A DNA stretch of 53,668 nt from a virus (taxonomy: Duplodnaviria; Caudoviricetes): the IMG/VR virus record IMGVR_UViG_3300043778_000094, positions 1 to 53,668 of that record; one strand, given 5' to 3'. Positions 25,955-53,668 of the stretch are shown piece by piece; position 1 is the first letter of the stretch; each line of letters begins with the position of its first letter. The notes beneath the pieces were generated by a model. It was not told the origin of the DNA. It made no database searches and saw only the letters and a list, made by a program, of their open reading frames with translations. The translations under genes were made by a program, and so were the position numbers.

Positions 25955-26140
25955 AGGTTAGGCACATTGCGCGTAACCCATTGATGTCTGATCGCGAAAT
26001 GGAGAAGGTTAGTCATCGTAAGACGTTGAATTCATTGGCTAGTTATAGTACGGCCCGGGGAGCCATCCCTCTAAAATCGAGTTGATTTCGTTGACGTTTT
26101 CGATCTAAGTGACTAACCGGGGTGGGGAGGTTAGTCACTT
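25955..26140. other. attP: tRNA-Asn 3'-end core with arm-type repeats
   Basis: CGGCCCGGGGAGCCA at 26051-26065; AGGTTAG(G/T)CA at 25955 and 26006; 12-bp inverted repeat AAGTGACTAACC (26107-26118) / GGTTAGTCACTT (26129-26140); next to the integrase 3' end. Confidence 0.75.
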
Positions 26141-27241
26141 TCTTGATCTCGGTTGGTTCGCAATGACTAGCGGAAGCGGTGACCCGCTTCCGCTAGGCTC
26201 TGGGAATTGAATCAATCGGGCCATCCCCGCCTCTGCCATGCGCGAACGATCGGCGGCGTCGATATAGCGCTGCACCTCCCTGAGACTTCGATGACCTGAT
26301 ATCGCGGCGATTTGCGGCGCCGTGCACCCGGCTTCGGCCAAGCGCCGGCAGATCGCCTTCCTGAGCCCGTGCGCCGAACAGTGCGACAAGCCGGCCTCGT
26401 TGCACCAATCGCGAAACGCGTTGCCAAACCCGGCCACGGCAAACGACTTGCCGAATTGGGTCATCAGAAACGCCAAATTGCCGCATTCGGACGCCGCGAT
26501 GATATGCGCCAGCTCGGGATGAATCGGGACGTCCATCGGTTGTCCGGTCTTCTGCTGTCGGATCGTGAACTTGCCACCCCGGAAATGCTGCGGCCCCATG
26601 CGCACGACATCGCCGCGGCGTTGCCCGGTATAGAGCAACAACGCCATCGCCAGCCGCGGCCGCGAACCGATTGGATGCTTGGCTTCGAATTGTGCGATCT
26701 CGTCTTCGGTCCAAGTGTGATAACCGCGCTCGCGTCCGTCGGCCTTGGTTCTGGTTGATTTGGCCTGGGCGACCCCGACGGTGGGATCATCGTCGCGCAA
26801 CCCGGCTCGAACAGCATATTGCATCAAGTGCCGCACGGCTTTGAGGTAGCCATGCTGGGCGAAGGGTTGCAATTTGCCGAGGATCGCCATCACGTGCTTT
26901 TGCGACAGCTCACGCAACGAATTGTCGCCGTGCGCCTTACGGAAACGCTCGAGGATGGCGCGTCGGTTCTTTTGCGTGATCGGCGCCAGGGCAAGAAAAC
27001 TGTGATCGCCGTAATAACGGGCGATGGCCGCGCTCAGCGAACCTTGTGGGGAACGGTTCTCACCAATTTCGCGCGTCCCTGGGTTGGCAAGCGCAGCGCG
27101 ATAAGCTTCGACAAATTCCGGCGAGTCAGGGAGACCGGGCAACGGTATTCGAGATTGCCCCTTGCGGCGAAAATAATACCGCTGCCGACCGTGCCGATCG
27201 CGATATTGATTGATGTAATCAAAACGCTTTATAATCCTCAT
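26135..27241 (-). CDS. int: Tyrosine integrase
   Basis: Catalytic R (TGQRRGD), K (QQKTG), HGLR, SGH and Y (QRYI); N-terminal arm-binding RDRHGRQRYYFRR. Confidence 0.95.
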   Translation of the reverse strand: MRIIKRFDYINQYRDRHGRQRYYFRRKGQSRIPLPGLPDSPEFVEAYRAALANPGTREIGENRSPQGSLSAAIARYYGDHSFLALAPITQKNRRAILERFRKAHGDNSLRELSQKHVMAILGKLQPFAQHGYLKAVRHLMQYAVRAGLRDDDPTVGVAQAKSTRTKADGRERGYHTWTEDEIAQFEAKHPIGSRPRLAMALLLYTGQRRGDVVRMGPQHFRGGKFTIRQQKTGQPMDVPIHPELAHIIAASECGNLAFLMTQFGKSFAVAGFGNAFRDWCNEAGLSHCSAHGLRKAICRRLAEAGCTAPQIAAISGHRSLREVQRYIDAADRSRMAEAGMARLIQFPEPSGSGSPLPLVIANQPRSRK

Positions 27242-27437
27242 CGAAGACCTCATCCCATGGATTGGGTTTTGGCTTTGGTTCTGGCGCCGTTCCGCTGACA
27301 ACAGGCGGCGTCAGTTCCACCACAATACGCCCATCTTGCCCGATTTCGACGCGCGCGACCTTATGACCGGCCGCCTCGACCGCCTTGATCGCCGCCGTGA
27401 TATCGCGCTGACGAAAGGTTAGACGAACGCGAGCCAT
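27219..27437 (-). CDS. Putative excisionase
   Basis: Small basic protein FRQRDITAAIKAV..G..VARVEI..NPWD overlapping the int start. Confidence 0.6.
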   Translation of the reverse strand: MARVRLTFRQRDITAAIKAVEAAGHKVARVEIGQDGRIVVELTPPVVSGTAPEPKPKPNPWDEVFDEDYKAF

Positions 27438-27463
27438 TATACACAAAACGCGTGTATTGTCAA
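27436..27463 (-). promoter_or_regulatory. Consensus sigma70 promoter overlapping the xis start, with internal operator-like palindrome
   Basis: TTGACA (27463-27458), N16, TATAAT (27441-27436); ATACAC-N7-GTGTAT inverted repeat spanning the spacer. Confidence 0.75.
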
Positions 27464-41262: not shown

Positions 41263-43231
41263 GGCTTCGATCCCAAGCTTTCTTGACTACCTCGAACCCG
41301 ACAACGAATTGGGGGTCGCCGAATGGTCTGATCGTTACCGCGTCTTGACTTCCCGCAGCGCTGCCGAACCCGGTCCGTACCGTACCGCTCGCACCCCATA
41401 TTTGCGAGAGCCGATGAACGATCTCGGGGTGACTTCGCCAATTCAGCGCGTGGTGTTGAAGAAGGCGGCGCAAGTCGGCGCCAGCGAACTCGGCAATTGT
41501 TGGATCGGCTACATTGTCGACCAGGCGCCGGGGCCGACCATGTTGGTGCAGCCGACCGTGGAGCTCGCCAAGCGGTATTCACGCCAGCGCATCGACCCGC
41601 TGCTCGACGAAAGCGAACAATTGCGCGTCAAGGTCCACCCGGCGCGGTCGCGCGACTCGGGCAATACCATGCTCCTCAAGGAGTTTCTCGGCGGCGTGTT
41701 GGTCATCACCGGCGCGAATTCAGCCGTGGGCTTGCGCTCGATGCCCGTGCGCTTCCTGTTCCTCGACGAGATCGATGCCTACCCTGGCGACATCGAGGGC
41801 GAAGGCGATCCCGTGGCCCTGGCCGAAGCCCGTGCGCGCACCTTCAGCTTTCGCGCCAAGAAATTGCTGGCTTCGACGCCGCTGATCAAAGGCAGTTCCC
41901 GCATCAGCGCCGAATACGAGGCCAGCGACCAGCGCAGATATTTCGTCCCGTGCCCGCTTTGCGGATTTGCGCAAGCTCTCGAATTCGCCCGGCTGCGCTG
42001 GCAACCCGGCCGGCCCGAAACCGTCGTCTACCAGTGTGCTCAATGCGAGAAGAGCTTCCCCGAATATCACAAGACGGCGATGCTCGAAGCCGGCGAATGG
42101 CGGCCGACCGCGATCAGCTCCGACCCGTTGACCCACGGCTATCACATCTCCGGGCTTTACAGCCCGATCGGCTGGCTCGGCTGGGCGCAAATCGCCCGTG
42201 ACTGGGAAAAGGCGACGAACGATCCCGACGCCCGCAAGACCTTCGTCAACACCGTCCTCGGCGAAGAATGGGAGGAGGAGGCCGATGCCGTGCCCGATTG
42301 GGAACGCCTCTACGAGCGCCGCGAGGCGTGGCCGCACGCCACGGTGCCAGAGCGTGGCTTGTTCTTGACGGCTGGCGCCGACGTCCAAATCGACCGTATC
42401 GAGATCGACGTTTGGGCCTGGGGGCGCGGCCTCGAGTCGTGGCTGGTCGAACATATCGTCATCAACGGCGACCCGGGGCGGCCGGAGATTTGGGAAATCC
42501 TGACCGAACTATTGGGCCGCACCTGGGAACACGAAACCGGCGTGCGCCTGGCGCTGCAGCGTTTGGCGATCGACACCGGGTTCACCACTCAAAACGTCTA
42601 CCAGTGGGCGCGCGGCCAGGATCGCGCCACGGTGCTGCCGGTGCGCGGCGTCGGCGCTTATGATCGTCTGGTGCCCGTGTCGGGGCCCACCAAGATCGAA
42701 GTGACGAACCAGGGCAAGCGGCTCAAGCGCGGGCTGAACCTGTGGACCGTCTCCGTCAGCTTTTTCAAGAAGGAACTCTATAAGCATCTGGGGCTGCCCA
42801 AGCCGACCACGGAACAGCTCGGCGCCGGCTTCACCTATCCCCACGGCTACATCCATTTGCCCGATACCGTGTCAGACGAATGGATTAAGCAACTGACCGC
42901 CGAACAACAGGTCATCATCCGCTCGCGCCGTGGCTTTGCCGCGCGCACCGAATGGCGCCAGTTGCGACCGCGCAACGAGGCGCTCGATTGCCGGGTCTAT
43001 GCACGGGCCGCGGTCTGGCTCGCCGGGGCCGATCGATGGTCCGAAAACCGCTGGCGTGCTCTCGAAGATCAATTGGGCCTCGAACCGCCGCCCGAACCCA
43101 ATCCGCCCGAACCGGAGACAGCCCCCGAAGACGATCAGTTGAAAGTTGCCCTGGGCGGGATCATCCGACGCCCCGTGCCCACGGCGATGGCATCACGCCG
43201 GCGACGCCGCGTCGGCTATTGGCAGGGATGA
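41261..43231 (+). CDS. terL: Large terminase subunit, lambda gpA family
   Basis: RTPYLREPM, KAAQVGASE, LFLDEIDAY, STP, DQRRYFVPCP.C, LTAGADVQ and RNEALDC motifs. Confidence 0.96.
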   Translation: MASIPSFLDYLEPDNELGVAEWSDRYRVLTSRSAAEPGPYRTARTPYLREPMNDLGVTSPIQRVVLKKAAQVGASELGNCWIGYIVDQAPGPTMLVQPTVELAKRYSRQRIDPLLDESEQLRVKVHPARSRDSGNTMLLKEFLGGVLVITGANSAVGLRSMPVRFLFLDEIDAYPGDIEGEGDPVALAEARARTFSFRAKKLLASTPLIKGSSRISAEYEASDQRRYFVPCPLCGFAQALEFARLRWQPGRPETVVYQCAQCEKSFPEYHKTAMLEAGEWRPTAISSDPLTHGYHISGLYSPIGWLGWAQIARDWEKATNDPDARKTFVNTVLGEEWEEEADAVPDWERLYERREAWPHATVPERGLFLTAGADVQIDRIEIDVWAWGRGLESWLVEHIVINGDPGRPEIWEILTELLGRTWEHETGVRLALQRLAIDTGFTTQNVYQWARGQDRATVLPVRGVGAYDRLVPVSGPTKIEVTNQGKRLKRGLNLWTVSVSFFKKELYKHLGLPKPTTEQLGAGFTYPHGYIHLPDTVSDEWIKQLTAEQQVIIRSRRGFAARTEWRQLRPRNEALDCRVYARAAVWLAGADRWSENRWRALEDQLGLEPPPEPNPPEPETAPEDDQLKVALGGIIRRPVPTAMASRRRRRVGYWQG

Positions 43232-43235
43232 CCCG

Positions 43236-43805
43236 ATGAAAGCAACTAGCCGCGCCACGGTCAAAATCAACAGCATCATCCCGAACCCGCGCAACAACCG
43301 GGTTCACCCGCCCGACCAGATCGAAATGCTCAAAGCTTCGATCGAGCGCTTTGGTCAGTCGCGGCCCGTGTTTGTGCGAAAGGAAAATCGCATGTTGATC
43401 GCCGGGCACGGCATCCACCAGGCGATGCGCGACCTGGGGCACGGCGAGATCGACGTGATCTTTTGGGATGTCGACCAGAAGACCGCCGACGAATATCTGC
43501 TCGCCGACAATCGGCTCGGCGAATTATCCCATTTCCACCGCGACCGCACGCTGGCCTTGCTCGAGGACGTGACCGAGGACGCCTATTCAGCGCTCGGGTT
43601 CACGGCCGAGGATGTCGAGGCCTTGCTCGAAAAAGTCAGCAAGCCGCCCGAAGTCAAGCAGATCAACACGGGCGCTGTCGCCGATCGCTTTTGGATCACG
43701 GTGCAAGGACCGATGACGACGCAATCGGCGGCGTTGCAGCGGATCCAGCATTTCATGGCGGAGTTTCCCGATGTCGAAATCGAGCTCGGCACCCTTAAGA
43801 ACTGA
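43236..43805 (+). CDS. ParB N-terminal domain protein
   Basis: PNPRNNRVH..QI..L.ASI..FG..LIAGHG..LADNR. Confidence 0.85.
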   Translation: MKATSRATVKINSIIPNPRNNRVHPPDQIEMLKASIERFGQSRPVFVRKENRMLIAGHGIHQAMRDLGHGEIDVIFWDVDQKTADEYLLADNRLGELSHFHRDRTLALLEDVTEDAYSALGFTAEDVEALLEKVSKPPEVKQINTGAVADRFWITVQGPMTTQSAALQRIQHFMAEFPDVEIELGTLKN

Positions 43806-44475
43806 AAAGTGGGGTCTCAACGTCAACCGTCAGTTCGGCCGACGGCTCGGTCCAGCGGGCGGTTTGCGCCAAAGGGTCGCCAACAACCCGGCTGCGCTGG
43901 CGGCCAAAGTCGAAATCCGCAGCAACGTCTTGAACGCGATCGGCGCCGACAAGGCGCGCGTCTTCGATGCCTTCGCCGGCGAGGGTCAGCTCTATTCCCG
44001 TGTCTGGTCGAAGGCTCAACGCTACGTCGGTTGCGATTTGAAATGGTATCGCGACGGGCGGGAACTCTACGTCGGCGACAGCCGCAATGTCATGCGGGCG
44101 ATCGACCTCGCCCCGTTCAACGTCTTTGATTTCGACAGTCACGGCAGCCCGTGGGAACACGTGCTGATCCTGTGCGCGCGGCGCCTGGTGACGGCGGGCG
44201 AACAGATCGGCGTCACCTTCACCGAAGGTTCGCGAGTCGACATTCAATACGGCCATTTTTCGGCCGCGTTGGCGCAATTGATCGGCGTGCAAGGCAAGGC
44301 GAAGGCCACCGGCATGGCGCGGGACAAGGGCTATCATCAGCTTCTCGATCGCGTTGTTACGGCGACCGCGCGACGGCTCAATTGCAGCATCCTCTATCAT
44401 TGGCAGGCGCGACCGCCGGGCCGGGGGACGCGTCTGGTCAATTACGTCGGCCTGGTGCTCGAAGGCCTGCCGTGA
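43771..44475 (+). CDS. SAM-dependent methyltransferase-fold protein (start uncertain)
   Basis: VFDAFAGEG motif I and FDFDSHGSPW motif. Confidence 0.7.
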   Translation: MSKSSSAPLRTEKWGLNVNRQFGRRLGPAGGLRQRVANNPAALAAKVEIRSNVLNAIGADKARVFDAFAGEGQLYSRVWSKAQRYVGCDLKWYRDGRELYVGDSRNVMRAIDLAPFNVFDFDSHGSPWEHVLILCARRLVTAGEQIGVTFTEGSRVDIQYGHFSAALAQLIGVQGKAKATGMARDKGYHQLLDRVVTATARRLNCSILYHWQARPPGRGTRLVNYVGLVLEGLP

Positions 44476-45011
44476 AGATCGTCAGTCGGCGGACCGCTGA
44501 CCTGATCCCGTACGAACACAACGCTCGCCAGCACAGCGACGAGCAGATCGACCAAATCGCTGCCTCGATCGAAGAATTCGGTTGGATGACGCCGCTGTTG
44601 ATCGACGGCAGCAACGGCATCATCGCCGGACACGCGCGTTGGCTGGCAGCGCAACGCTTGGCGATGCCGCGGGTCCCGTGCATCGAGCACGCTCATTTGA
44701 CCGACGCGCAACGCCGCGCCTATGTCCTCGCCGACAACAAGTTGACGCTGAACGCGACCTGGGACGAGGCGATGTTGGCGCTGGAGCTCGAACGGCTCGA
44801 CACGACGGAATTCGATTTGTCGCTGATCGGCTTCAGTGAACGAGAATTGTCACGGCTGCTCGACGGGCTCGGCGAGGGCGGCGACGCCGATAGCCAGACC
44901 GTGCCGGAGTCCTGGGTTGTCGTCGTCGAATGCGCCGACGAAGCCGACCAGGTCGCCTTGATCGAACGAATGCAGGCGGAAGGCCGGACCGTCAGAGGAT
45001 CAATCGGGTGA
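44472..45011 (+). CDS. ParB N-terminal domain protein 2
   Basis: LIPYEHNARQHSDEQIDQIAASIEEFGW..IIAGHAR..AYVLADNKL; GTGA coupling. Confidence 0.9.
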   Translation: MKIVSRRTADLIPYEHNARQHSDEQIDQIAASIEEFGWMTPLLIDGSNGIIAGHARWLAAQRLAMPRVPCIEHAHLTDAQRRAYVLADNKLTLNATWDEAMLALELERLDTTEFDLSLIGFSERELSRLLDGLGEGGDADSQTVPESWVVVVECADEADQVALIERMQAEGRTVRGSIG

Positions 45012-46168
45012 ACATCGACATCGTGCGCGAATCCCCCGTCGTCAGCACACCGCGCGTCGTGCAGATGACCGGCATGTTCGACGTGTCGCTCGAAGAAAAG
45101 AGCCGCGTTGAAATCAATGCAAAATTGCCGATCGAGGAACGCCCGTGGAGTATCGGTCTGATCGTCGGGCCGTCCGGCTGCGGCAAGTCGACCGTGGCGC
45201 GCGAACTTTTTGGGCCCGCCGTGATCGCCGGCTTCGATTGGCCTGAAGATCGCAGCATCCTCGACGGCTTTCCGGCCGCGATGAGCATCAAGACGATTAC
45301 CGCGCTGCTCAGCGCCGTGGGCTTTGGCAGCGTGCCGAATTGGTTGCGCCCGTTTCACGTGTTATCGAACGGCGAACAATTTCGCGCCACGGTCGCCCGG
45401 GCGCTTGCCGAGTGTCCCGACCTCGCCGTCATCGACGAATTCACCTCTGTCGTCGATCGCCAGGTCGCCAAAGTCGCGGCTCATTGCGTGCAAAAGACGG
45501 TGCGGCGCAATAAGCGCCAATTCATCGCCGTCAGCTGTCATTACGATATCGTCGAATGGCTGCAACCAGATTGGGTCTTCGAACCCCATCTCGGCGCCTT
45601 CGAATGGAGGTCTCTTCAGCGACGACCCGAAATCGCCGTTGAAATCCGCAGTGTCGATCACGGCGTCTGGCACCGCTTTAGCAAATATCATTATTTGACT
45701 TCGGTATTGCACAACGGGGCGATCTGCATCGGCGGCTTTGCCAACGATCAATGCGTCGCCTTTACTTCCGCCGTGCGACAAGTGCATTCGACGGTGCACG
45801 ACATTTGGCGCGAACATCGCACCGTGGTCTTGCCCGATTATCAGGGGTTGGGGTTCGCCGGCATTCTGGCCGAATGGCTCGGCTATCATCTATGGCAACA
45901 CGGGTGGCGATTTCATTCGGTGACATCGCACCCCGCGATCATCGCGCAGAAGGCAAGATCGCCGCGCTGGCACCTCATGCGCCACGGGCTGCAATCGGGA
46001 GGAGGCGTCTATGCAGACCCGTCGCTCAAGCGAACCCAGCAACGATTGTCCGAACGACGGATCTCCGCCAGCTTTGTCTACACCCCGCCGTCTGGGACGC
46101 CATCAGCACGGCGGCCAGAGCGCGACGGCCCATTGCTCGGTCCCGAATATCATCGACGACGACGATGA
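45008..46168 (+). CDS. ABC-type ATPase fused to a GNAT acetyltransferase
   Basis: GPSGCGKST, LSNGEQFR and IDEFTSVVDR; C-terminal F.KYHYL..RTVVLPDYQGLG acetyl-CoA motif. Confidence 0.88.
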   Translation: MNIDIVRESPVVSTPRVVQMTGMFDVSLEEKSRVEINAKLPIEERPWSIGLIVGPSGCGKSTVARELFGPAVIAGFDWPEDRSILDGFPAAMSIKTITALLSAVGFGSVPNWLRPFHVLSNGEQFRATVARALAECPDLAVIDEFTSVVDRQVAKVAAHCVQKTVRRNKRQFIAVSCHYDIVEWLQPDWVFEPHLGAFEWRSLQRRPEIAVEIRSVDHGVWHRFSKYHYLTSVLHNGAICIGGFANDQCVAFTSAVRQVHSTVHDIWREHRTVVLPDYQGLGFAGILAEWLGYHLWQHGWRFHSVTSHPAIIAQKARSPRWHLMRHGLQSGGGVYADPSLKRTQQRLSERRISASFVYTPPSGTPSARRPERDGPLLGPEYHRRRR

Positions 46169-46202
46169 ATGGATCGCGGCTTTGATCGGCCGCGCCGGAT
46201 CA

Positions 46203-46517
46203 CTAGGTTGAAACCTGCAAATGGATCATGGCGATTTCGTCGGCGTCGGCGAGATCGCGGTAGATCGTCTTGAGCGCCGCGGCGATGTCGCCGATTTCGT
46301 CGAGGCGGCCGACTTCGAAACGCGCGACCCGGGCGGCGAGCTCCGGGCTGCGCGCTGGGTCGTAGTTGTAGCGGATCACGATCGATCGGCCCGGCCAATA
46401 CGTGTTCGCCGTGAACGGCCGACGATGGCGGCGATATTCAGTCGTCTTTTCGCCACGGGCGAATTGCTCAAAAAACACCCGCTTGACCACCAGCGGGTAC
46501 GGCTTCGGCTCGCTCAT
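46203..46517 (-). CDS. ASCH-domain protein
   Basis: LVVKRVFFEQFARGEKTTEYR (G-x-K-x-x-E-x-R). Confidence 0.8.
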   Translation of the reverse strand: MSEPKPYPLVVKRVFFEQFARGEKTTEYRRHRRPFTANTYWPGRSIVIRYNYDPARSPELAARVARFEVGRLDEIGDIAAALKTIYRDLADADEIAMIHLQVST

Positions 46518-46536
46518 TGTCCCCCCCTGGAAGCTT

Positions 46537-46755
46537 CTAATGTATCAGACGAGCGATCAGCGCCCCGATTACGGCCGCCAACGCGCCGTTGCCAATCAAC
46601 GCCAACGGCACATACCAATGGCGTTCGCGTTCCAACTTCAGTGTTTCCTGAAATAGCTTTTCCCGTTCAGCCGAAAGTTTGTCGCGTTCGGCCGCAAGCT
46701 TGTCATGTTCAGCGATGAATTTGCGAGTTTCGGCAGCAAGATGTTCTTCGCTCAT
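46537..46755 (-). CDS. Small coiled-coil protein with C-terminal TM segment
   Basis: AE(H/R)DKL heptad repeats then a hydrophobic tail; GGAG SD. Confidence 0.7.
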   Translation of the reverse strand: MSEEHLAAETRKFIAEHDKLAAERDKLSAEREKLFQETLKLERERHWYVPLALIGNGALAAVIGALIARLIH

Positions 46756-46774
46756 TTCTGACGCTCCAGAATTA

Positions 46775-46797
46775 GGGCCGGGTTTGCGGCCCGGCCC
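46775..46797. terminator. GC-rich hairpin after the KlcB-like gene
   Basis: GGGCCGGG-N7-CCCGGCCC; no clear U-tract. Confidence 0.4.
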
Positions 46798-46807
46798 GGT
46801 GATTTCA

Positions 46808-47470
46808 CTAGCTCTTTTGTTTCAATTCGTAGAGCCAGCCGCCGGGTTGCCAATCGGCATCGTCTGGGTCGGGGCCGACTGGGATTTCTTGTCGCGTGCG
46901 AGTGTCGTGATCCCAACGCGTTCTGACCATTTTGACCGGTTTCTTGGAACGCTCTTGCGCCAGCTTCGTGACGCATTGCTTGACCGTGCGCCCGCGCGCG
47001 TCGTCAGCGTCGCAATAGATCGAAAGATAGCCGCTTTCGCTCAGAAACGGCCGATCCCAATCAAACGCCGTCAATTCGAAATGGAAGTCGCCGTCGGCGT
47101 GAACCACGACTCGGCATTTCTTGACCGTGATCAGAAACGTGCCGCTCTGACCCCAAAGCGGCACTTGACCGGGTGCAGTCGCGAGCAATTTTGTCAACCG
47201 GGCATGGCCGGTCAACTCTTCGTCATCGTCATCGTCTGGCATGGCGTCGCCGACGGCATAGAGGCGATCGGCGAATTCGCTGGCCTGGGCTTCGTCGCCG
47301 CCGCGGATCGCAGCGTCATACTGCTTGAGCCAGGCGCGGCCTTGTTCGAGCCGTTCGGTGGGGTCGCCGGCGAGCTCACGGTGGATGCGATAACGCCGTT
47401 CGATAGGACTCGACGGCGGCAGAAAATCAAACCCCGGCTGAAACGCCTGGGCGGTTGCTGTTCGACGCAT
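46808..47470 (-). CDS. KlcB-like protein
   Basis: APGQVPLWGQSGTFLI..FHFE..DWDRPFLSESGY recalls IncP KlcB; ATG follows the conserved SD box. Confidence 0.55.
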   Translation of the reverse strand: MRRTATAQAFQPGFDFLPPSSPIERRYRIHRELAGDPTERLEQGRAWLKQYDAAIRGGDEAQASEFADRLYAVGDAMPDDDDDEELTGHARLTKLLATAPGQVPLWGQSGTFLITVKKCRVVVHADGDFHFELTAFDWDRPFLSESGYLSIYCDADDARGRTVKQCVTKLAQERSKKPVKMVRTRWDHDTRTRQEIPVGPDPDDADWQPGGWLYELKQKS

Positions 47471-47504
47471 GTATCGTCTCCATTGCAGATCGGGAAAGAG
47501 GCTT

Positions 47505-47565
47505 CCCGTGACGCGCGGGCGAGCCGCGCGTTTCGGCCCGGTGCTACCGGGCCTCGTCAGACGGG
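47505..47565 (-). ncRNA. Hammerhead ribozyme HH1 (type I)
   Basis: cccgu CUGACGA ggcccggu-agc-accgggcc GAAA cgcgcgg-cucgc-ccgcgcg UC/acggg; GUC cut after 47510. Confidence 0.95.
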
Positions 47566-48372
47566 GTATTCGCGCACCCGCAAATCGCGGGGCCATTCTT
47601 CTGGGTCGGCGCCAGCATAATGCACGGTCGACAACGACCGATCATCGTCACGGGCGATCGACCCCAATTGCTTCATAAACACCGGCACGGCGGCCGCCTG
47701 ACAGCGCCGGATCATAAGTCGGGCCCAGGCGATATCAAACGATCGCGCTCGCTGCCGCGGTCGCCCGCTTTCGCCGCCGATCACTACCCAGCCCGTCCCC
47801 GTCGGGTCGCGATCGATCATCTCGAGCTGCGGCTCGACCGAGATCCACGGGACTTCGGTCGGCAGCCGGCTAAGCCACGGCACGCGTTCGTCCCAACGGC
47901 GCTGATCCTCGGCCGAGACGCCGAGCCAGATGCCGGGGTGCGCCGTCGTCGCGCCGATCTGCGCCAACAACCCAGCGAGATTGTCGGGTCGCTTGGTCAA
48001 CACCTGGAAGACATGCCCACGGGCGCGCTGCGCCGCCGTCATCGCCTCCCAGATGCGGGCAAACCATTCGCGCGGCATGTCGTCGTGGGCCAGGTCGGAC
48101 ATGCTGTTGACGAAGATCATGCGCGGTCGCGCCCAGCGCATGGGTTGCGTCAGCGCCGCTTCCCAGAAGCGCAATTCCCCGGTCCACACCGGGCCTCCCT
48201 TGGTGTTGCGCGTCAAACCGCGATATTTGGCGGACGCCGGCCCCCCAAAGCCGGCGATCCGTGCAGCTTCGCGCATCGCGTAACAATGCGTACACCCGGG
48301 CGAAATCACCGTGCATCCGACTGTCGGGTTCCACGTCGACTCGGTCCAGGCAATCGCGGTGTCGCGTGCCAT
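47557..48372 (-). CDS. Phage Gp37/Gp68 (DUF5131) family protein
   Basis: IAWTESTWNPTVGCTVISPGCTHCYA, IFVNSMSDL, FQVLTKRP, WVVIGGESG and VPVFMKQLG motifs. Confidence 0.93.
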   Translation of the reverse strand: MARDTAIAWTESTWNPTVGCTVISPGCTHCYAMREAARIAGFGGPASAKYRGLTRNTKGGPVWTGELRFWEAALTQPMRWARPRMIFVNSMSDLAHDDMPREWFARIWEAMTAAQRARGHVFQVLTKRPDNLAGLLAQIGATTAHPGIWLGVSAEDQRRWDERVPWLSRLPTEVPWISVEPQLEMIDRDPTGTGWVVIGGESGRPRQRARSFDIAWARLMIRRCQAAAVPVFMKQLGSIARDDDRSLSTVHYAGADPEEWPRDLRVREYPV

Positions 48373-48388
48373 GTGTTTCTCCCCCCCG

Positions 48389-48417
48389 TTGACAAATTTG
48401 CTAAAAACCCCCAATAT
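48389..48417 (+). promoter_or_regulatory. Putative promoter of the antisense sRNA
   Basis: TTGACA, N17, CAATAT; predicted start site ~48424-48425. Confidence 0.55.
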
Positions 48418-48424
48418 CCGCGCC

Positions 48425-48487
48425 GAAGACGTGAGTCTTCATTGCAGAACTGGGGGGCCGTCCTGATTGGGGCGGCCCCCACTTTTT
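48425..48487 (+). ncRNA. Putative trans-acting sRNA antisense to the shared SD box
   Basis: GAAGAC-GUGA-GUCUUC hairpin, single-stranded AUUGCAGAACU, then an 11-bp terminator stem (48453-48480) and T5. Confidence 0.65.
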
Positions 48488-49781
48488 ACGCTGCCTCGTC
48501 AGAAGCGGTCTCGGGAAAGACTTCGCTGACTGACTTATCGCCCTCGCCGGGAACGACTTTATCCGGCGACAACACGGTTTCGACCTGGCGCCAATCGAGG
48601 CAGCGCGTGGCCGCCACTTCCGGCGTCAAACCGCCTTCCCACCAGCTGTCGAGCGGCACGCCGTCGGCGAGTTGGTGGATCGTCAAGCCGGCATTGTCAC
48701 GCGACAACACGGCGTTGACATCGGCGAAGAATTTTGCCCTCGCCTTTTTCGCGGGCGCGCCCTTGAGCTTGGCTCGCTGGGCGACGCGCGTGGTGTCGCC
48801 GTCGTCTGTCGTTTCGGCCTCGTCCTCATCAAGCAATTGAGGCGATGGTGCCGGCGCAGGTAACGCGGTCTGAGGCTGCGTACGGGTTATCAACGTGTTG
48901 ATCCGCTGATCGTAATCCTCGATCTTTTTCTGCAGCAGCCGATTGTTCGGCATTTTTTCGAGCCGCGCCATGGTGCGCGTGCGATTGGCCCGCAAAGCGC
49001 CAATTGTCCCGGTGATTGCCGGGTTCAATATGCGCGCTTGCTGCGGCGCCAACGCCTGATCTCTGAGCCCCATCACGGGCATCAACGCCAACACCGCCCC
49101 CGGGCATCCGGGGAACATAATCAACGTTGGCTTGTCATCGCCCGCGCCGAAGACCTGCACGGTCGGCGACTCGAGCAATTTCGCGAGATCAGCGACACCC
49201 TTGAGATAGGCCGCTTGATAGCCGGTACTTTCGAGGTCCAGTGTTTCGCGCGACGACAGATTGATGCTGGCGAACATGCCGTCGTAAGCCGGAAAGTCGC
49301 CTTCGACTGGGAACAGACGAAAGGTGACATTGTCGTGAGGATCCGACAACAACAGGCGCGGCGCGCCAGTCCCATACGAAATCACGGCGGAGTCGCCGCC
49401 GAGCTTTTCGATCATCATCAACTGTTCTCTGAACAGAGCGAGCGGCACCGTTATTCCCTTTCCGAGCCAACCGGGCAGCGTTGCTGACCCGCTTGGGATC
49501 GAATAGGCGAATAAGCGATGACCGTCGGTCGCGCTGACACGGACTTCGCCTTCGCGCGTGGCGATGTTGACGCCCTGGAGATTTTCCGGGACGTCTTTCT
49601 TGTCGCCGTTGACATCGGTGGTTTTGGCACCGGTGCAGCTGATCGCTGCCTTGAGCGCGAGCACGGGGATGGCGATCGGCTCAAGCGCCGCCACCGACTC
49701 CACGACCGCCTCCTCGACAACGTTCTCGGCAGCGCCGTTCGACGGCGCCACTTCGCGCGAAGTGCTTTTCTTGGTTCGCAT
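48486..49781 (-). CDS. Beta sliding clamp (DnaN)-like protein with terminal extensions
   Basis: LQGV..ATDGHRL, GITVP, EGDFPAY, GYQAAYL and LALMPV resemble clamp domains 2-3. Confidence 0.75.
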   Translation of the reverse strand: MRTKKSTSREVAPSNGAAENVVEEAVVESVAALEPIAIPVLALKAAISCTGAKTTDVNGDKKDVPENLQGVNIATREGEVRVSATDGHRLFAYSIPSGSATLPGWLGKGITVPLALFREQLMMIEKLGGDSAVISYGTGAPRLLLSDPHDNVTFRLFPVEGDFPAYDGMFASINLSSRETLDLESTGYQAAYLKGVADLAKLLESPTVQVFGAGDDKPTLIMFPGCPGAVLALMPVMGLRDQALAPQQARILNPAITGTIGALRANRTRTMARLEKMPNNRLLQKKIEDYDQRINTLITRTQPQTALPAPAPSPQLLDEDEAETTDDGDTTRVAQRAKLKGAPAKKARAKFFADVNAVLSRDNAGLTIHQLADGVPLDSWWEGGLTPEVAATRCLDWRQVETVLSPDKVVPGEGDKSVSEVFPETASDEAA

Positions 49782-49817
49782 AATGGGTCTCCATTGCAGG
49801 TATCGGGAAATTAGCTT

Positions 49818-49878
49818 CCCGTGACGCGCGGGCGAGCCGCGCGTTTCGGCCCGGTGCTACCGGGCCTCGTCAGACGGG
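49818..49878 (-). ncRNA. Hammerhead ribozyme HH2 (type I), identical to HH1
   Basis: 49814-49878 is an exact 65-bp copy of 47501-47565; GUC cut after 49823. Confidence 0.95.
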
Positions 49879-49879
49879 T

Positions 49880-50143
49880 TTAGTGATGTAGTAATTGCGC
49901 GATTTGCGTTAATTGGCCGCTGATGTCGCCGAGCCGACCGTTCATGCTGACAATCATGCCAAGAACTGCGATCGTGGCGGCGGCATTCGCGCCGACCGCC
50001 CAAATCAACATTGTCAGCTTTCCTTCGACGCCGAGCAGCCGCTTTTCATAATCGGCAAGTTCTTCTGCGGCTTTGTCGGCTTTGTCGGTCGAAGCGCCAG
50101 CGTCCAGCAACGCATCGCGTAATGCGCCGAGTTGCAACGCCAT
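49880..50143 (-). CDS. Small coiled-coil/TM protein (DUF1640-like)
   Basis: LRDALLDAGAS.DKA..AAE..then a TM segment; CAATGGAGG SD. Confidence 0.65.
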   Translation of the reverse strand: MALQLGALRDALLDAGASTDKADKAAEELADYEKRLLGVEGKLTMLIWAVGANAAATIAVLGMIVSMNGRLGDISGQLTQIAQLLHH

Positions 50144-50159
50144 GTTGCCTCCATTGTTG

Positions 50160-50375
50160 TCAGCCGAGATATAGCAACAATTCCTCGGCGCCGAACACCT
50201 GTTCGACACCGCAGCTGTCGCACGTGTAGTTGCGAGCGTCGGGTTCGCAACCGTCGGCCTCTTCGCCGCAAATCAGGCAAAAGCCGGGGTTATCGAGTTC
50301 CGTCATCTCGCGTTCGACTGCCTCCATCACGCGTTCAGCGGTGATCGAAGCGTGCCACAGCTTGCGCGCTAGCAT
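50160..50375 (-). CDS. Small zinc-ribbon protein
   Basis: GFCLICG..CEPDARNY.CDSCG..VFGAEE. Confidence 0.75.
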   Translation of the reverse strand: MLARKLWHASITAERVMEAVEREMTELDNPGFCLICGEEADGCEPDARNYTCDSCGVEQVFGAEELLLYLG

Positions 50376-50575
50376 GACCGGCACTCCGGGTAGAGTTGCA
50401 GACGGGTCGAGCGCATCGCCGGCACGCCGTGGCGGCCGAATTGACGCCGCCAGGCAGCAAGTTCCTCGTTCGATACGGCAAAGCGGATCGAAGCCTCGGC
50501 GATCGACAACAAGTCGTAATCGATCGCCAGCAACAACACCGCTTTGCGTTGCGGCGACCAACGATCAGTGGCCAT
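50369..50575 (-). CDS. SciP (DUF1153)-like CtrA-inhibitor homologue
   Basis: RWSPQRKA.LL.AI...LLSIAEA..RF.VS.EEL.AW.R....HG..AMR.TRLQ.Y follows the SciP pattern RW..RKA.VV.AV.GGLLS.EEA..RY.L..EEF..W.....HG..GLR.T..Q.Y. Confidence 0.8.
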   Translation of the reverse strand: MATDRWSPQRKAVLLLAIDYDLLSIAEASIRFAVSNEELAAWRRQFGRHGVPAMRSTRLQLYPECRSC

Positions 50576-50756
50576 TGTTCGGGACCATGACGTTGAGCGC
50601 CAACTTGACGCCGGGGCGCTTGCACTCGACTGGCACTATCCCGTGGGTCGAGGCGATCAGCTTGGTTTTGCCGGTCTTCGACGTGACGCCGCGGGCGGTC
50701 AGATCGCAGGTGATTACGAGCTTGTCGCCCGTCACCTTGATCTCGACGTTTTCCAT
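50565..50756 (-). CDS. Small beta-rich basic protein
   Basis: MENVEIKVTGDKLVITCDL..SKTGKTKLIASTHG; follows HH3 and the SD box. Confidence 0.8.
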   Translation of the reverse strand: MENVEIKVTGDKLVITCDLTARGVTSKTGKTKLIASTHGIVPVECKRPGVKLALNVMVPNNGH

Positions 50757-50792
50757 AAGGGTCTCCATTGCAGGTGGTACGGAATTGGACTT

Positions 50793-50853
50793 CCGCGACG
50801 TCCCGACTTGTGTCGGGACGTTTCGTCCCCTGTCACGGGGACTCGTCAGGCGG
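50793..50853 (-). ncRNA. Hammerhead ribozyme HH3 (type I)
   Basis: ccgc CUGACGA gucccc-gugaca-ggggac GAAA cgucccgac-acaa-gucgggacg UC/gcgg; cut after 50797. Confidence 0.95.
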
Positions 50854-50856
50854 GGA

Positions 50857-51066
50857 TTAATCCCAGGATCGGGATTTGCCGTAAGTGTCGCGGATGAGGA
50901 TTTTCGTCCCGAAGTCGCGCGAACGCGCCTCGGTGGCGAAGGCCTGAACCTCCTTCTCGTCCTCGCATTGCGCGTGGTCGAGCAGTTCGAGCCCGTCACG
51001 GCTCAACACCGTGACTTGCCATTTGACCCTGCTGCCGCGTGGCGGCACATATTGGCGACGTGCCAT
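50857..51066 (-). CDS. Hypothetical protein
   Basis: 69 aa starting MARRQYVPPRG; bounded by HH4 and HH3. Confidence 0.75.
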   Translation of the reverse strand: MARRQYVPPRGSRVKWQVTVLSRDGLELLDHAQCEDEKEVQAFATEARSRDFGTKILIRDTYGKSRSWD

Positions 51067-51100
51067 GATGGTCTCCATTGCAGAAGTGCGGATTTTTTGT

Positions 51101-51160
51101 ACCGCTACGCCCAGCTTGCGTTGGGCGTTTCGCTGGGGTCTCACCAGCTCTTCAGGCGGT
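51101..51160 (-). ncRNA. Hammerhead ribozyme HH4 (type I)
   Basis: accgc CUGAAGA gcugg-ugagacc-ccagc GAAA cgccca-acgcaagc-ugggcg UA/gcggu; GUA cut after 51106. Confidence 0.93.
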
Positions 51161-51448
51161 TTGTGCTGCCAACGCGTCCTCGAGGGCCTTCTTGGCAACT
51201 GGGTTGGTGAACGTCGCGACGCGAGCCGCGAGCCGGGTCCGATTGGCCCGACGTGCAGCCTCGTGACGATCGCACGGGACGCTCGAACGCACGCGACGCG
51301 CCGGCGCATCGGCCAGTTGCGCGTCATAGTGCGCCAGCGCCTCAACAACCGCTGCTTTCGCGACGGCGTTGGTGAAGGTTTCGCCCTTCTGGGCCAGCCG
51401 GGTACGATTTGCGCGCACGGCTGCGAAGTGCATCACTGACTTTGTCAT
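51152..51448 (-). CDS. Hypothetical protein with two RANRTRLA repeats (paralogue A)
   Basis: Internal duplication; stop codon is the UGA of the HH4 core. Confidence 0.8.
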   Translation of the reverse strand: MTKSVMHFAAVRANRTRLAQKGETFTNAVAKAAVVEALAHYDAQLADAPARRVRSSVPCDRHEAARRANRTRLAARVATFTNPVAKKALEDALAAQTA

Positions 51449-51486
51449 CGTGGACTCCATTGCAGAAAAGGGGTGCGGTCGAAAGT

Positions 51487-51542
51487 ACCGCGACCAGCCT
51501 TGTGGCTGGTTTCGCCCGGATTTCACGGGCTCATCAGGCGGT
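51487..51542 (-). ncRNA. Hammerhead ribozyme HH5 (type I)
   Basis: accgc CUGAUGA gcccg-ugaaauc-cgggc GAAA ccagcc-acaa-ggcugg UC/gcggu; cut after 51492. Confidence 0.95.
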
Positions 51543-51742
51543 TACGCGACAGTGATAACGACGTTGTCGCTGTCGCCGTTCGACCCGGTGTCGAGGTCAT
51601 AGCGACCGACACGGATCAACGCGTCGAAGATGATTTCTTCGTCGTCGTCTAACATGTTGACGGCGATTACATCGAACAGCGGGGCTGTTTCGGACGAACC
51701 ATCGGAGAAAGTCAGGCAGACGATCGTTGAACGGGTGATCAT
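51542..51742 (-). CDS. Small acidic hypothetical protein
   Basis: 66 aa starting MITRSTIV, containing LDDDEE; bounded by HH6 and HH5. Confidence 0.75.
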   Translation of the reverse strand: MITRSTIVCLTFSDGSSETAPLFDVIAVNMLDDDEEIIFDALIRVGRYDLDTGSNGDSDNVVITVA

Positions 51743-51766
51743 CGTGGGCTCCATTGCAGAGAGTTA

Positions 51767-51824
51767 CCGCTACGCCCAGCAAGCGCTGGGCGTTTCGCCC
51801 GAATTTCACGGGCTCGTCAGGCGG
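51767..51824 (-). ncRNA. Hammerhead ribozyme HH6 (type I)
   Basis: ccgc CUGACGA gcccg-ugaaauu-cgggc GAAA cgcccagc-gcuu-gcugggcg UA/gcgg; cut after 51771. Confidence 0.95.
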
Positions 51825-52086
51825 CTTGTGACAGCGCGTCTTCGATCGCCTTGCGGGCGATTTCGTTGGTGAACTTCGAAGCGCGAACTGCGAGCCGGGT
51901 GCGATTTGCCTTGACAGCTGCGAGGTGCCGATCGCACGGGGTGGGCACATTGTGCAGCGCGTCGAAAATCGCGACCGCTTCGGAAATCGCCTTGCGTGCG
52001 ACTTCGTTGGTGAACGAATTCGACTTGGCAGCCAGGCGGGTCCGGTTTGCGCGGATCGCAGCGATATGGCGGATCGTGTTGGTCAT
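51817..52086 (-). CDS. Hypothetical protein with two RANRTRLA repeats (paralogue B)
   Basis: Internal duplication; stop codon is the UGA of the HH6 core. Confidence 0.8.
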   Translation of the reverse strand: MTNTIRHIAAIRANRTRLAAKSNSFTNEVARKAISEAVAIFDALHNVPTPCDRHLAAVKANRTRLAVRASKFTNEIARKAIEDALSQAA

Positions 52087-52122
52087 CGTGGGCTCCATTG
52101 CGATAGGGTTTCGGGTTGATTT

Positions 52123-52176
52123 CCCGTGAGCGCTTGTGCGCTTTCGTCCCGGCATCACCGGGCCTCGTCAGACGGG
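52123..52176 (-). ncRNA. Hammerhead ribozyme HH7 (type I)
   Basis: cccgu CUGACGA ggcccgg-ugaug-ccgggac GAAA gcgc-acaa-gcgc UC/acggg; CUC cut after 52128; one G/A mismatch in stem II. Confidence 0.88.
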
Positions 52177-52529
52177 TTGCGATCAAGCGCGCGTCATTTC
52201 TGACGCGCGCTCGCTCGTTTCGTTTGCAAGTGGAGATCCTGCAATGAGCCGCGCTATCTGGCAGCGCGGGTGCATTCCTTCGATTTTGTCGTGTCCGAAA
52301 CCCGAAGTGGGTCGCCTGTGGGGGGCCTGCCGGGGAGCTTCAGGCGCTAGTGCGCGCTTTCGAGCTTTCCTACCCGATCCCGATCCGTCAGCCCGGGGAA
52401 TGATATGGTTGGCTGACTTTGCAATCCTTCGAAGCTGGGTCGCGCCTGGATTGCTTCGCGCGTCCCTTGGAAGTCTTGTTTCGTTTCGCGTTTCGCTTCG
52501 TCCTTCTGTCGTTTCGTCTTACACACATG

Positions 52530-52577
52530 AATATAAGCTATTCGCCGGGCTTCTCAAGAGATTTTTTCCACTTTTCC
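52530..52577 (-). promoter_or_regulatory. Putative promoter driving the ribozyme array
   Basis: TTGAGA (52557-52552), N16, TATATT (52535-52530), with A-tracts upstream (UP-element-like). Confidence 0.65.
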
Positions 52578-52917
52578 GGGCGTTTGTACTCGTTTTCGGA
52601 AGTACTTGAGAAACCAACCGCATCCGCACGTTGAAACACGCCGCAAGCGGAGTGCGTCATCCTGTCGCAGTCCGCTTGTTGCGTGCATCTTGCATGCGAG
52701 GTCGCGCGATGGGGGGTCGCAAAGTCGCGTCAGATCGCGCTGGGCGCGTCGCTGGCGCGCGAAAGCGCTTCGCACGTAGGGCAGCTTAGGGCGCGTCATC
52801 ACGTGCCCCAGGACGCGTCCCTGTCGATTTGCGTCGTCGCGCGAGATCGCGACGTGGTTCTCGCGTGTTGGTAGAAAACGGTTTACGGACGACCGTTTTT
52901 GCGGCTAAGCTTCGCGC

Positions 52918-53478
52918 ATGAAAGGCATGCGGCCGGGACAAGGCGGCTTCACGTTCGACGCCACGGTGTTTCTGGGGAACCTCGAAGCATTGGCCCCGCC
53001 GAAGTCTGATCCCGCGGTGGCGCTGGCGCTGGTCGACACCGCCAAGGCCAGCATCACCAAAGCGGCGCAATTGATCGCCAAGCGCACCGGGCTCAAGAGC
53101 GGCACGGTCAAGGCGCGACTGTCTTATGACTCGGTGCGGGTCGGCGATTATCAGGCGACGATCCGCTCATCACGCAAGCCGATCCCGCTCTACGACTTCC
53201 CCGGCACGGCGCAGACCGGCGCAGGGGTGCGCACGCGCGCCTGGGGCAAGAGCCAGGTCATCCGCTCGGCGTTTATCGCCAACATGCGGTCCGGGCACCG
53301 CGGCGCTTATCGCCGCCGAACGCGTCGCCGCCTGCCGATCAAAGAATTGTGGGGACCGACTATTTATGGCACCTTCGCCACGCCGGAAGTGCAGGGCCTG
53401 ATCCGCTCAACTATGCAGGATCGTTTGAGGACAGCGCTTCTCCGGCGTCTCGCGGCGGCCCAGCGCCGCCGACGATGA
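52918..53478 (+). CDS. Minor tail/neck protein, lambda gpZ-like
   Basis: Basic protein with AFIANMRSGHRG.Y.R...RLPIKELWGP motif. Confidence 0.8.
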   Translation: MKGMRPGQGGFTFDATVFLGNLEALAPPKSDPAVALALVDTAKASITKAAQLIAKRTGLKSGTVKARLSYDSVRVGDYQATIRSSRKPIPLYDFPGTAQTGAGVRTRAWGKSQVIRSAFIANMRSGHRGAYRRRTRRRLPIKELWGPTIYGTFATPEVQGLIRSTMQDRLRTALLRRLAAAQRRRR

Positions 53479-53482
53479 CAAA

Positions 53483-53515
53483 GGGCCGGTTCTCACTGTG
53501 ACTGAGAACCGGCCC
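53483..53515. terminator. 13-bp perfect hairpin
   Basis: GGGCCGGTTCTCA-N7-TGAGAACCGGCCC right after the gpZ-like stop; only short T-tracts. Confidence 0.55.
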
Positions 53516-53541
53516 CGATTGCTTGCTCCACCCCGTTCGCG

Positions 53542-53668
53542 CCCAACGGTGCGGCTACCGCTCTACGCGGGTCGCAGGGGAAAGGCAAGCGTTTTCAATG
53601 CCGGATTGTTCACCGGAAGCCAGGGCGGAACGTCGGCGGCAGATCGCCGATTTGTGGCGCAGCATCGG
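53542..53668 (+). repeat. Terminal direct repeat, copy 2
   Basis: Identical to 1-127. Confidence 0.95.

Follow-up and report, generated by a model that had tools for sequence, protein, structure and literature searches.

A candidate small antisense-RNA gene, possibly derived from a ribozyme-leader cassette, within the hammerhead array of a soil phage

In base-pairing small RNAs (sRNAs), an unpaired seed that is complementary to the ribosome-binding regions of several messages stands between a 5′ stem-loop and a Rho-independent terminator, the latter a GC stem with a U-tail. In phage P22, the small RNA sar is specified opposite the early operon in an intercistronic position, has a promoter that is crossed by transcription of the operon, ends at a terminator, and represses translation by pairing. 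The RNA immunity factors c4 and CI are short phage RNAs that pair with repeated complements and so silence early or antirepressor genes. Excerpts of the pertinent reports present sar as an antisense RNA that controls ant (PMC2629481), c4 of phage P1 as a trans-acting RNA that represses Ant synthesis (PMC8546580), and the CI RNA of phage P4 as pairing with two complementary sites, seqA and seqC (PMC4825925); c4 and CI are both described there as processed from the transcript that carries their targets (PMC8546580, PMC4825925). For hammerhead ribozymes, the excerpted text of Perreault et al. 2011 places several of them around single genes or short gene blocks in prophages, alphaproteobacterial ones included, proposes that long transcripts are thereby processed to gene-length mRNAs, and reports cleavage in vitro and in Escherichia coli (PMC3088659). 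Prophage hammerhead arrays have been known since that year. We have analysed a complete virus record from IMG/VR (IMGVR_UViG_3300043778_000094; 53,668 bp with direct terminal repeats, the whole of which is here called the window), in which an array of seven hammerheads on the minus strand encloses, at 48389-48487 on the plus strand, an element with the anatomy of an sRNA gene. From sequence comparison we put at roughly 0.45 the probability that a ~63-nucleotide (nt) plus-strand RNA is made from this element and acts on the leaders of the array messages, and the same figure on the locus being a former leader cassette of the hammerhead array whose ribozyme was lost and which now serves as a small antisense-RNA gene.

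The array leaders share a common order: each cleavage site is followed by a short hairpin in competition with stem I of the ribozyme, then by a 15-nt box, and 5–6 nt further on by the start codon. The box has two parts, an upstream half and the Shine-Dalgarno sequence (SD). An eighth copy of the box, here called box*, lies between the stop codon of a gene for a clamp-like protein (48486) and the start of a DUF5131 gene (48372), with no ribozyme in front of it, and it is the complement of box* that forms the core of the element. The features are as follows, in coordinates of the window.

48389-48394, plus strand: -35 hexamer of the proposed sRNA promoter, perfect consensus
48412-48417, plus strand: -10-like hexamer, 7 nt ahead of the hairpin
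48425-48440, plus strand: 5′ hairpin of 6 bp with a 4-nt loop (GNRA-type on the plus strand)
48435-48449, plus strand: anti-box, a complement of the leader box over 15 nt, one pair (in the SD) being G-U
48441-48451, plus strand: unpaired stretch of 11 nt
48452-48487, plus strand: putative intrinsic terminator, a 12-bp GC stem with a 4-nt loop and five T
48435-48449, minus strand: box*, the eighth, ribozyme-less copy of the leader box, one mismatch to the box
48495-48502, minus strand: hammerhead-core relic within the last codons of the clamp-like gene

An earlier prediction, made from the letters of the window (the original prediction), had assembled the plus-strand features into a trans-acting sRNA that silences the array messages, and each of them is present where it was placed. 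The two promoter hexamers are separated by a spacer of 17 nt, and the -10-like hexamer agrees with the consensus at three of six positions, among them the A of position 2 and the T of position 6. The 3′ arm of the 5′ hairpin doubles as the anti-SD part of the seed. Within the putative terminator, the GC stem-loop occupies 48452/3-48480 and the T5 run 48483-48487, so that the distance from hairpin start to last T (48425 to 48487) is 63 nt. Folded as plus-strand RNA, the 65 nt from 48425 reach −36.2 kcal/mol (z −5.3; none of 200 shuffles was as good), and the minimum-energy fold contains a GC stem of 12 pairs, two of them G-U, and leaves an 11-nt toehold unpaired. The GC stem with its T5 run is the top terminator-like site listed by a scan of 43000-53668, and an Rfam search of the same region at E up to 1 gave no match overlapping 48389-48487. 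On the minus strand, which we call the array strand, the one mismatch of box* is a change of the second SD G to A, and the SD-like part is buried in a hairpin. Other assignments of the same sequence were considered and rejected: a plus-strand terminator for the nearest plus-strand gene, which ends at 46168, 2.3 kb away; box* as ribosome-binding site of a small open reading frame (ORF) or of an N-terminally extended DUF5131 protein, the nearest in-frame start being ~21 nt off; and a minus-strand DUF5131 promoter within the element, for which the best candidate matches the -35 consensus at three of six positions.

The 15-nt box is strongly over-represented, with 10 matches at three or fewer mismatches compared to 1.07 expected, and none of 100 shuffles reached 10. 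The anti-box can pair without interruption with the boxes of seven leaders, as follows.

47476-47490, minus strand: leader box after hammerhead 1, 14 contiguous pairs
49787-49801, minus strand: leader box after hammerhead 2, 13 contiguous pairs
50761-50775, minus strand: leader box after hammerhead 3, 13 contiguous pairs
51071-51085, minus strand: leader box after hammerhead 4, 15 contiguous pairs
51453-51467, minus strand: leader box after hammerhead 5, 13 contiguous pairs
51747-51761, minus strand: leader box after hammerhead 6, 12 contiguous pairs
52089-52103, minus strand: leader box after hammerhead 7, the most diverged, 9 contiguous pairs

A ribozyme-less gene starting at 50143 can form 10 contiguous pairs, two of which must be G-U. 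All eight lengths, as re-derived from the boxes, equal those given in the original prediction (15, 14, 13, 13, 13, 12, 9, and 10). Such complementarity is in itself trivial, because the element is the reverse complement of an eighth box copy. We have also ranked duplexes for the seed (48435-48452) over 21,456 windows on both strands of the genome, a check that the original prediction had proposed. The best duplex is that with the seed's own template, at −30.9 kcal/mol, and six leaders hold six of the seven next-best places at −23.7 to −18.4 kcal/mol (mean −7.3, sd 2.4), which puts the leaders at the top behind the template; one unrelated plus-strand site, at 16216, is also among the top duplexes (−20.0 kcal/mol).

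Five further IMG/VR contigs represent the same phage, with 96–100% protein identity, and among them the intergenic region varies at three sites only, so that no covariation can be read from them. More distant relatives were gathered with a profile of the clamp-like protein, which is 54–60% identical in L251/L252, 51% in L258, and 37% in L253, and which, where it flanks the element described here, is 36–54% identical over the best matching segment in six relatives. Homologues P0002-P0014 of this protein are 51–61% identical. L258 sits in a 494-kb contig of an alphaproteobacterial metagenome-assembled genome (MAG) and is therefore taken for a prophage; L259 and L261 come from a Rhizobium MAG and L260 from a Stellaceae MAG. 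The profile yielded the further array lineages L255, L256, and L257, and a gapped pattern scan for a ribozyme end plus box yielded L413. All of the distant relatives have hammerhead arrays with the same two-part leader box in lineage-specific variants.

In 7 of the 11 array-bearing lineages (the window, L251, L253, L258, L259, L260, and L261) we find a module that on the array strand begins with an A-run and continues through a GC hairpin, a short conserved linker, and box* to a second hairpin. It was not seen in the fetched parts of L255, L256, L257, and L413, all of them partial loci. Its stem sequences are unrelated between lineages, and a MAFFT alignment of the seven modules did not bring the stems into register. 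The module precedes the DUF5131 gene in the window, L251, and L258, and a different small gene, directly behind an active hammerhead, in L253, L259, L260, and L261. The SD of box* is weakened in the window, L253, L259, L260, and L261 and buried in the next hairpin in the window, L251, and L258. All the SD changes are G to A, which leaves a G-U pair possible for an antisense RNA; transitions are the commonest changes anyway. Between the box halves there is one A in the window, L251, and L253, two in L260 and L261, and three in L258 and L259, and in all seven lineages box* has the A count of the local regular boxes; the box* of L259 carries the lineage-specific first-base change plus one further substitution. 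The covariation of box and seed that the original prediction had suggested looking for in relatives is thus present, the seed copy belonging to the local length class of the box in seven of seven lineages.

The same comparison bears on the possibility, already raised with the original prediction, that the element is a decayed eighth leader. The core relic in the last clamp-like codons of the window has more complete counterparts at the corresponding position in L251 and L258. Decayed hammerheads with spoiled cores and lost stems flank the module in L251 (1660-1740 and 1820-1860) and in L258 (9280-9340 and 9940-9975), and from decayed ribozymes on both sides we conclude that the module arose inside former ribozyme-leader cassettes. 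As to origin, then, the suggestion holds, for the element is a box copy without a ribozyme; as to decay it does not, the module being kept in seven lineages. A decaying, functionless leader whose plus-strand promoter and terminator features are accidental would account for the spoiled SD of the box copy, for its lack of a start codon, and for the hammerhead relics alongside. It would leave unexplained why the architecture is kept in seven lineages with unrelated stems next to ribozyme relics that have decayed beyond function, which argues that the module is no dead relic; nor would chance be expected to bring together so rare a promoter-like site and the locally best terminator. We consider a functionless, decaying leader very unlikely.

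A plus-strand RNA might instead be made and act in cis only, as P22 sar does, pairing or colliding with read-through transcription of the junction between the clamp-like and DUF5131 genes, so that downstream genes are uncoupled or silenced and the matches to other leaders are a by-product of the origin from a leader copy. The complementarity to its own template is perfect over 63 nt and gives the best duplex of the ranking, its promoter overlaps the DUF5131 ribosome-binding region on the opposite strand, and the module always stands directly upstream of one gene (of two kinds) and not anywhere in the array. Yet the RNA leaves the true SD of the downstream gene uncovered in every lineage, and a cis-acting RNA has no need for the box sequence or for its local variant, whereas box* follows that variant in seven of seven lineages; concerted evolution could explain the latter. 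A purely cis-acting RNA seems to us quite improbable.

The evidence for the strand on which the module acts comes from U-runs and folding energies. In the antisense reading, every copy of the module consists of a hairpin, the anti-box, and a GC stem directly followed by a U-run, with a length of 5 in the window, 6 in L251, 5 in L258, 4 in L253, 4 in L259, 6 in L261, and 9 in L260; on the array side, the longest U-run after the stem is 2–3 in seven of seven lineages. A terminator scan that covered five loci (the window, L258, L259, L260, and L261) lists the antisense strand in four, all but L259. With flanks included, the antisense strand folds better than the array strand in six of six comparisons; with the A/U flanks trimmed it is better by 7–9 kcal/mol in three of seven, within 2 kcal/mol in three, and worse by 4.3 kcal/mol in one. 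The energies of the trimmed folds are as follows.

Window: antisense −34.8 kcal/mol, array −27.3 kcal/mol
L253: antisense −40.3 kcal/mol, array −33.4 kcal/mol
L260: antisense −42.8 kcal/mol, array −34.1 kcal/mol
L251: antisense −39.2 kcal/mol, array −39.0 kcal/mol
L259: antisense −28.4 kcal/mol, array −30.3 kcal/mol
L261: antisense −25.2 kcal/mol, array −25.8 kcal/mol
L258: antisense −29.7 kcal/mol, array −34.0 kcal/mol

The antisense reading has 13 G-U pairs compared to 8 for the array reading, and one U-G pair of the plus-strand stem is C-G in four of the five near-identical relatives (L002-L005). Taken together, these data lean towards a terminator that is active on the antisense strand, possibly in both directions; the lean is real and is no proof.

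For the promoter, both strands of the genome were searched for a perfect -35 hexamer and, 16–18 nt beyond it, a second hexamer in which positions 2 and 6 are A and T, respectively, and at least four letters are A/T. Two such sites exist, compared to 0.85 ± 1.02 expected from 200 first-order simulations, and the second of them is the consensus promoter of the integrase operon. It is hard to put down to chance that so rare a site should end 7 nt ahead of a unit made of hairpin, seed, and terminator. In L251 and L258 the first five -35 bases are kept at the same place, the distance from -35 to hairpin being 36, 36, and ~37–38 nt in the three DUF5131-linked lineages; their spacers differ, and each of them has A as the second and T as the sixth base of the -10 position. 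By its sequence the promoter appears convincing in the window lineage only, plausible in two others, and unrecognisable in four. The trans-acting sRNA of the original prediction accordingly gains from its anatomy, from a module present in seven lineages, and from the strand of the U-run, and falls short in that a promoter is not shared across the lineages.

A second sequence complementary to the boxes is found on the array strand itself, near the start of the operon.

52222-52250, minus strand: same-strand anti-box, upstream of hammerhead 7, with a GC hairpin following at ~52187-52210

This leader anti-box is bipartite: a short linker, which varies, joins an anti-SD to a complement of the box's upstream half. 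Its counterparts lie at ~547-580 in L253, ~6817-6850 in L255, ~6127-6160 in L257, ~6520-6550 in L258, ~6910-6940 in L260, and ~3370-3395 in L261, and a GC hairpin stands behind it in the window, L255, and L258. When the local box was scored against all array-strand windows of each of nine loci, the leader anti-box ranked first in L253, L255, L257, and L260, second in L258, and third in the window and L261, so that in seven of nine loci no array-strand sequence, or hardly any, complements the local box better. The best complement in L259 lies far upstream and is unclear, and the array-strand scoring of the L413 locus gave no leader anti-box. In L257 the upstream half of the box differs, and the leader element has the matching complement. 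By these sequence features the leader anti-box looks like a regulator of the c4/CI type freed from its own target transcript. The original prediction had held that pairing with the sRNA would explain why the upstream half of the box is conserved; the complementarity itself is present, and the leader anti-box now competes as a rival reason for this conservation.

With both complements in view, the case for an opposite-strand RNA has to be set against a module that works on the array strand only. Such a module would be an insulating, perhaps bidirectional, terminator at the boundary of the early operon together with an SD-disabled, single-stranded decoy box that binds the leader anti-box RNA or a protein. 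The next gene would be served by the second hairpin and a separate SD, and no independent plus-strand RNA would be made. Several observations favour this alternative and weigh against an sRNA. Every lineage has either weakened or buried the SD of its box*, as selection on array-strand RNA predicts, so that RNA of this strand also matters. In four lineages the module stands between an active hammerhead and the next SD, and hence in a 5′ leader. The terminator scan lists the array strand in two of its five loci (L259 and L261), so that the hairpin may be bidirectional. In L258 the array strand forms the better box-adjacent hairpin, a G-U pair on it corresponding to an A-C mismatch in the antisense reading. 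The leader anti-box is conserved and could be the true partner of the boxes, box* on the array strand being perhaps its decoy. In L253, L259, L260, and L261, the antisense promoter would fall within the first codons of the next gene, and no promoter is shared there.

Further points count against the sRNA without speaking for a particular alternative. The -10-like hexamer of the window matches at only three of six positions, and a strict scan did not list the element's promoter; no consensus promoter was found in 800-nt windows around the module in L258, L259, and L260, and the one consensus site in L261 is ~400 nt from the module. The seed is partly paired with the U-tail in five of six flanked antisense folds, that of the window being the exception. 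Some ordinary leaders, about one in four by eye, have A-runs in their loops, so that the A-run signal could be partly inherited. The same co-variation of box* and box would arise if the repeated boxes evolved in concert (gene conversion) or had a binding factor in common.

An array-strand role alone, on the other hand, leaves without a known function the A-run 5′ of the hairpin, which is kept in seven of seven lineages, and offers a tail of no more than 2–3 consecutive U; the stems of the window and L260 have 12 continuous pairs on the antisense strand only, and the rare perfect -35 of the window stands at promoter distance from the hairpin. We hold an exclusively array-strand module to be somewhat unlikely, and favour the small antisense-RNA gene at the probability given above.

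Searches for further carriers extended these comparisons. Exact-pattern scans of viral contigs for box* and for the box gave 88 and at least 117 stretches, respectively, and among the matches listed only the records of the five close relatives recur, one of which has more than one match; the single matches in the remaining stretches are taken for chance. A search for DUF5131 in viral contigs (35 loci) found no arrays beyond the close relatives, and among 61 viral loci for the small protein behind the module one had hammerheads, with an ordinary leader. The clamp-like profile gave no further genome among 400 of the class of G001, and the small-protein profile, searched through 244 genomes of the order of G002, matched none that was new.

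The surroundings of the element on the minus strand are as follows.

52530-52557, minus strand: promoter-like site that would drive the array operon leftwards, 10 of 12 consensus matches
47510-52177, minus strand: stretch occupied by the seven type-I hammerheads, as recognised by core motif and stems
48486-49781, minus strand: upstream array gene, for a 431-aa sliding-clamp-like protein
47557-48372, minus strand: downstream gene, for a DUF5131 (Gp37/Gp68 family) protein

The array-operon leader downstream of the promoter-like site is roughly 390 nt long. Hammerhead cores start at 52171, 51820, 51537, 51155, 50849, 49873, and 47560; all seven matches to the core lie on the minus strand, the plus strand having none, and compensatory changes are seen in stem I. 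By their core, three stems, and ends in stem I, the seven elements classify as type I hammerheads, so that the ribozymes of the original prediction appear to be real. Rfam at the gathering score gave no match anywhere in the window, hammerheads included; below the gathering score, in 43000-53668, it reported two of the seven (E 0.0013 and 0.041), and the other five were not reported even at E up to 1. Since all seven fall under the Rfam gathering scores, the array and its regulators are invisible to routine annotation. Apart from the clamp-like and DUF5131 proteins, the array genes encode small proteins without a family and a DUF1153 helix-turn-helix protein.

A hairpin is possible in the first 20–35 nt past each cleavage site (e.g. 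47509-47491 and 49822-49803, minus strand), using the 3′ strand of stem I; judged from these sequences, the message would refold after cleavage, and its 5′-hydroxyl end would then be kept in a stem. Stop codons of array genes lie in or just before hammerheads (47557-47560, 49880-49873, and others, minus strand), and that of DUF5131 is part of the conserved core of hammerhead 1. With the stops located in the hammerhead, translation to the end of a gene would unfold the ribozyme that follows. The DUF5131 SD is 2–10 nt away from the plus-strand -35 hexamer of the element, and its G-run (48381-48390) is complementary, over 10 nt at 90%, to the C-run of the terminator 3′ arm plus linker (48448-48457); on array-strand RNA, folding of the terminator hairpin and exposure of this SD could therefore be coupled. 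The same pairing was not seen in L251 or L258.

The close relative L004 (5835-6060) has an extra cassette, made of a box, a small ORF, and a hammerhead, exactly between the DUF5131 end and the next ribozyme, at window position 47563, and RNA run X3 has a loose end that matches this variant. The array cassettes are modular, bordered by box and ribozyme. In L255 (11250-11520), a box copy with a spoiled SD stands behind two hairpins, and the opposite strand has no U-run; after it comes a 180-nt AT-rich stretch with a promoter-like sequence and a ribozyme-less box and start codon, from which it appears that arrays can contain internal promoters.

The window has a G+C content of 62%, and its remaining genes specify a lambda-like head and a Mu-like contractile tail. 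A tyrosine integrase is encoded at 26138-27238 on the minus strand (Pfam E 8e-18), and the soil phage is therefore temperate, which makes a role for the element in lysogeny conceivable. The integrase promoter (27434-27463, minus strand) has two perfect consensus hexamers with a 16-nt spacer; it is abutted by a 71-aa ORF (27222-27434, minus strand) whose start overlaps the -10 and behind which the integrase gene lies.

Public sequencing runs provide a view of transcription: 17 runs cover part of 46800-52600, of which 16 are RNA (soil metatranscriptomes), and we compared four by their unstranded contigs of at least 150 nt. Contigs are present over the clamp-like and DUF5131 genes, over several cassettes, and over the operon leader (52223-52511 in run X1); those of runs X1 and X4 end at 52511, ~12 nt inside the start expected from the site at 52530-52557. 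Among the listed pieces of these four unstranded runs, none lies on 48379-48478; the listed pieces of run X2 stop at 48378 and resume at 48479. The gap at the element is uninformative, because a similar gap occurs in the ribozyme-free stretch 50341-50465. Over 46000-53668, no hammerhead is spanned by any of 32 listed contig pieces from the four runs (all of them RNA); eight of the piece ends come to within 5 nt of the point where a ribozyme core begins, and the upper contig ends lie ~9–55 nt inside the predicted cleavage sites. These ends give a weak hint of ribozyme cleavage in nature.

If the small antisense-RNA gene is what we take it to be, host RNA polymerase would start at ~48424-48426 on the plus strand, from a promoter that overlaps the ribosome-binding region of DUF5131 on the other strand, and would stop at the GC stem and U-run; the product would be a ~63-nt RNA in which the anti-box lies single-stranded between the 5′ hairpin and the terminator. 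On the ribozyme-released mRNAs, nucleation by the unpaired part would take place at the upstream half of the leader box, and pairing would spread into the SD with one G-U, so that 30S binding is blocked or an RNase III substrate is formed; the same RNA would be perfectly complementary to read-through transcripts of its own junction. Because leftward early transcription crosses its promoter, it would mostly be made when that transcription is low, as in a lysogen or at a late stage of infection, and would then silence the cassette genes. Transcription of the candidate RNA, its pairing in the cell, its effect, and its timing we infer from the arrangement described above, and the toxicity, timing, and repression of the cassettes are pure inference. 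One could go further and imagine a circuit made of RNA only, in which a universal leader box and two selected anti-box RNAs, one cut or terminated out of the operon leader and one made from the opposite strand of a disabled leader copy, time early translation and silence the cassettes in the lysogen, possibly with no need of a protein repressor, the disabled array-strand box being a sponge that links both RNAs; we rate this extension as quite unlikely.

The window itself presents cut messages with a common two-part box that is kept across distant alphaproteobacterial phages, and sequences complementary to that box that are conserved at two defined places. For the hammerhead arrays described previously, the excerpted text of Perreault et al. 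mentions no shared leader box, anti-box, or antisense RNA (PMC3088659), and a full-text literature search likewise found none of these described for hammerhead arrays. Were the proposed RNA to be made and to act as we suggest, one 63-nt RNA could shut down an entire set of early messages, each of them released independently, and the combination of ribozyme processing with a uniform leader would be explained.

The closest working analogue is sar of phage P22, like the candidate a small RNA of the opposite strand in an intercistronic region. Whereas sar covers the ribosome-binding site of the adjacent gene and has that one target, the candidate RNA leaves the adjacent true SD uncovered, and its main action would be in trans, because its box match is common to at least six other messages. 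The likeness to P1 c4 and P4 CI that the original prediction drew holds in one respect, the complementarity to repeated sequences of the early region (9–15 pairs with seven leaders), and fails in another, since the candidate lies opposite all of its targets. The c4 and CI RNAs are of the same strand as their targets, whereas the candidate would come from the opposite strand and have its own promoter; of the two anti-boxes, that of the operon leader (52222-52250), on the same strand as the targets, is the closer formal analogue. P4 CI moreover acts by premature termination, whereas SD occlusion is proposed here. Compared to multi-target base-pairing sRNAs in general, the breadth of targets would come from one repeated, homologous leader box, and the RNA would be the mirror image of a paralogue of its targets. 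What would be new, if the reading is true, is one small RNA aimed at the uniform leader common to ribozyme-released messages, a compact multi-target form of the antisense control described in P22, P1, and P4.

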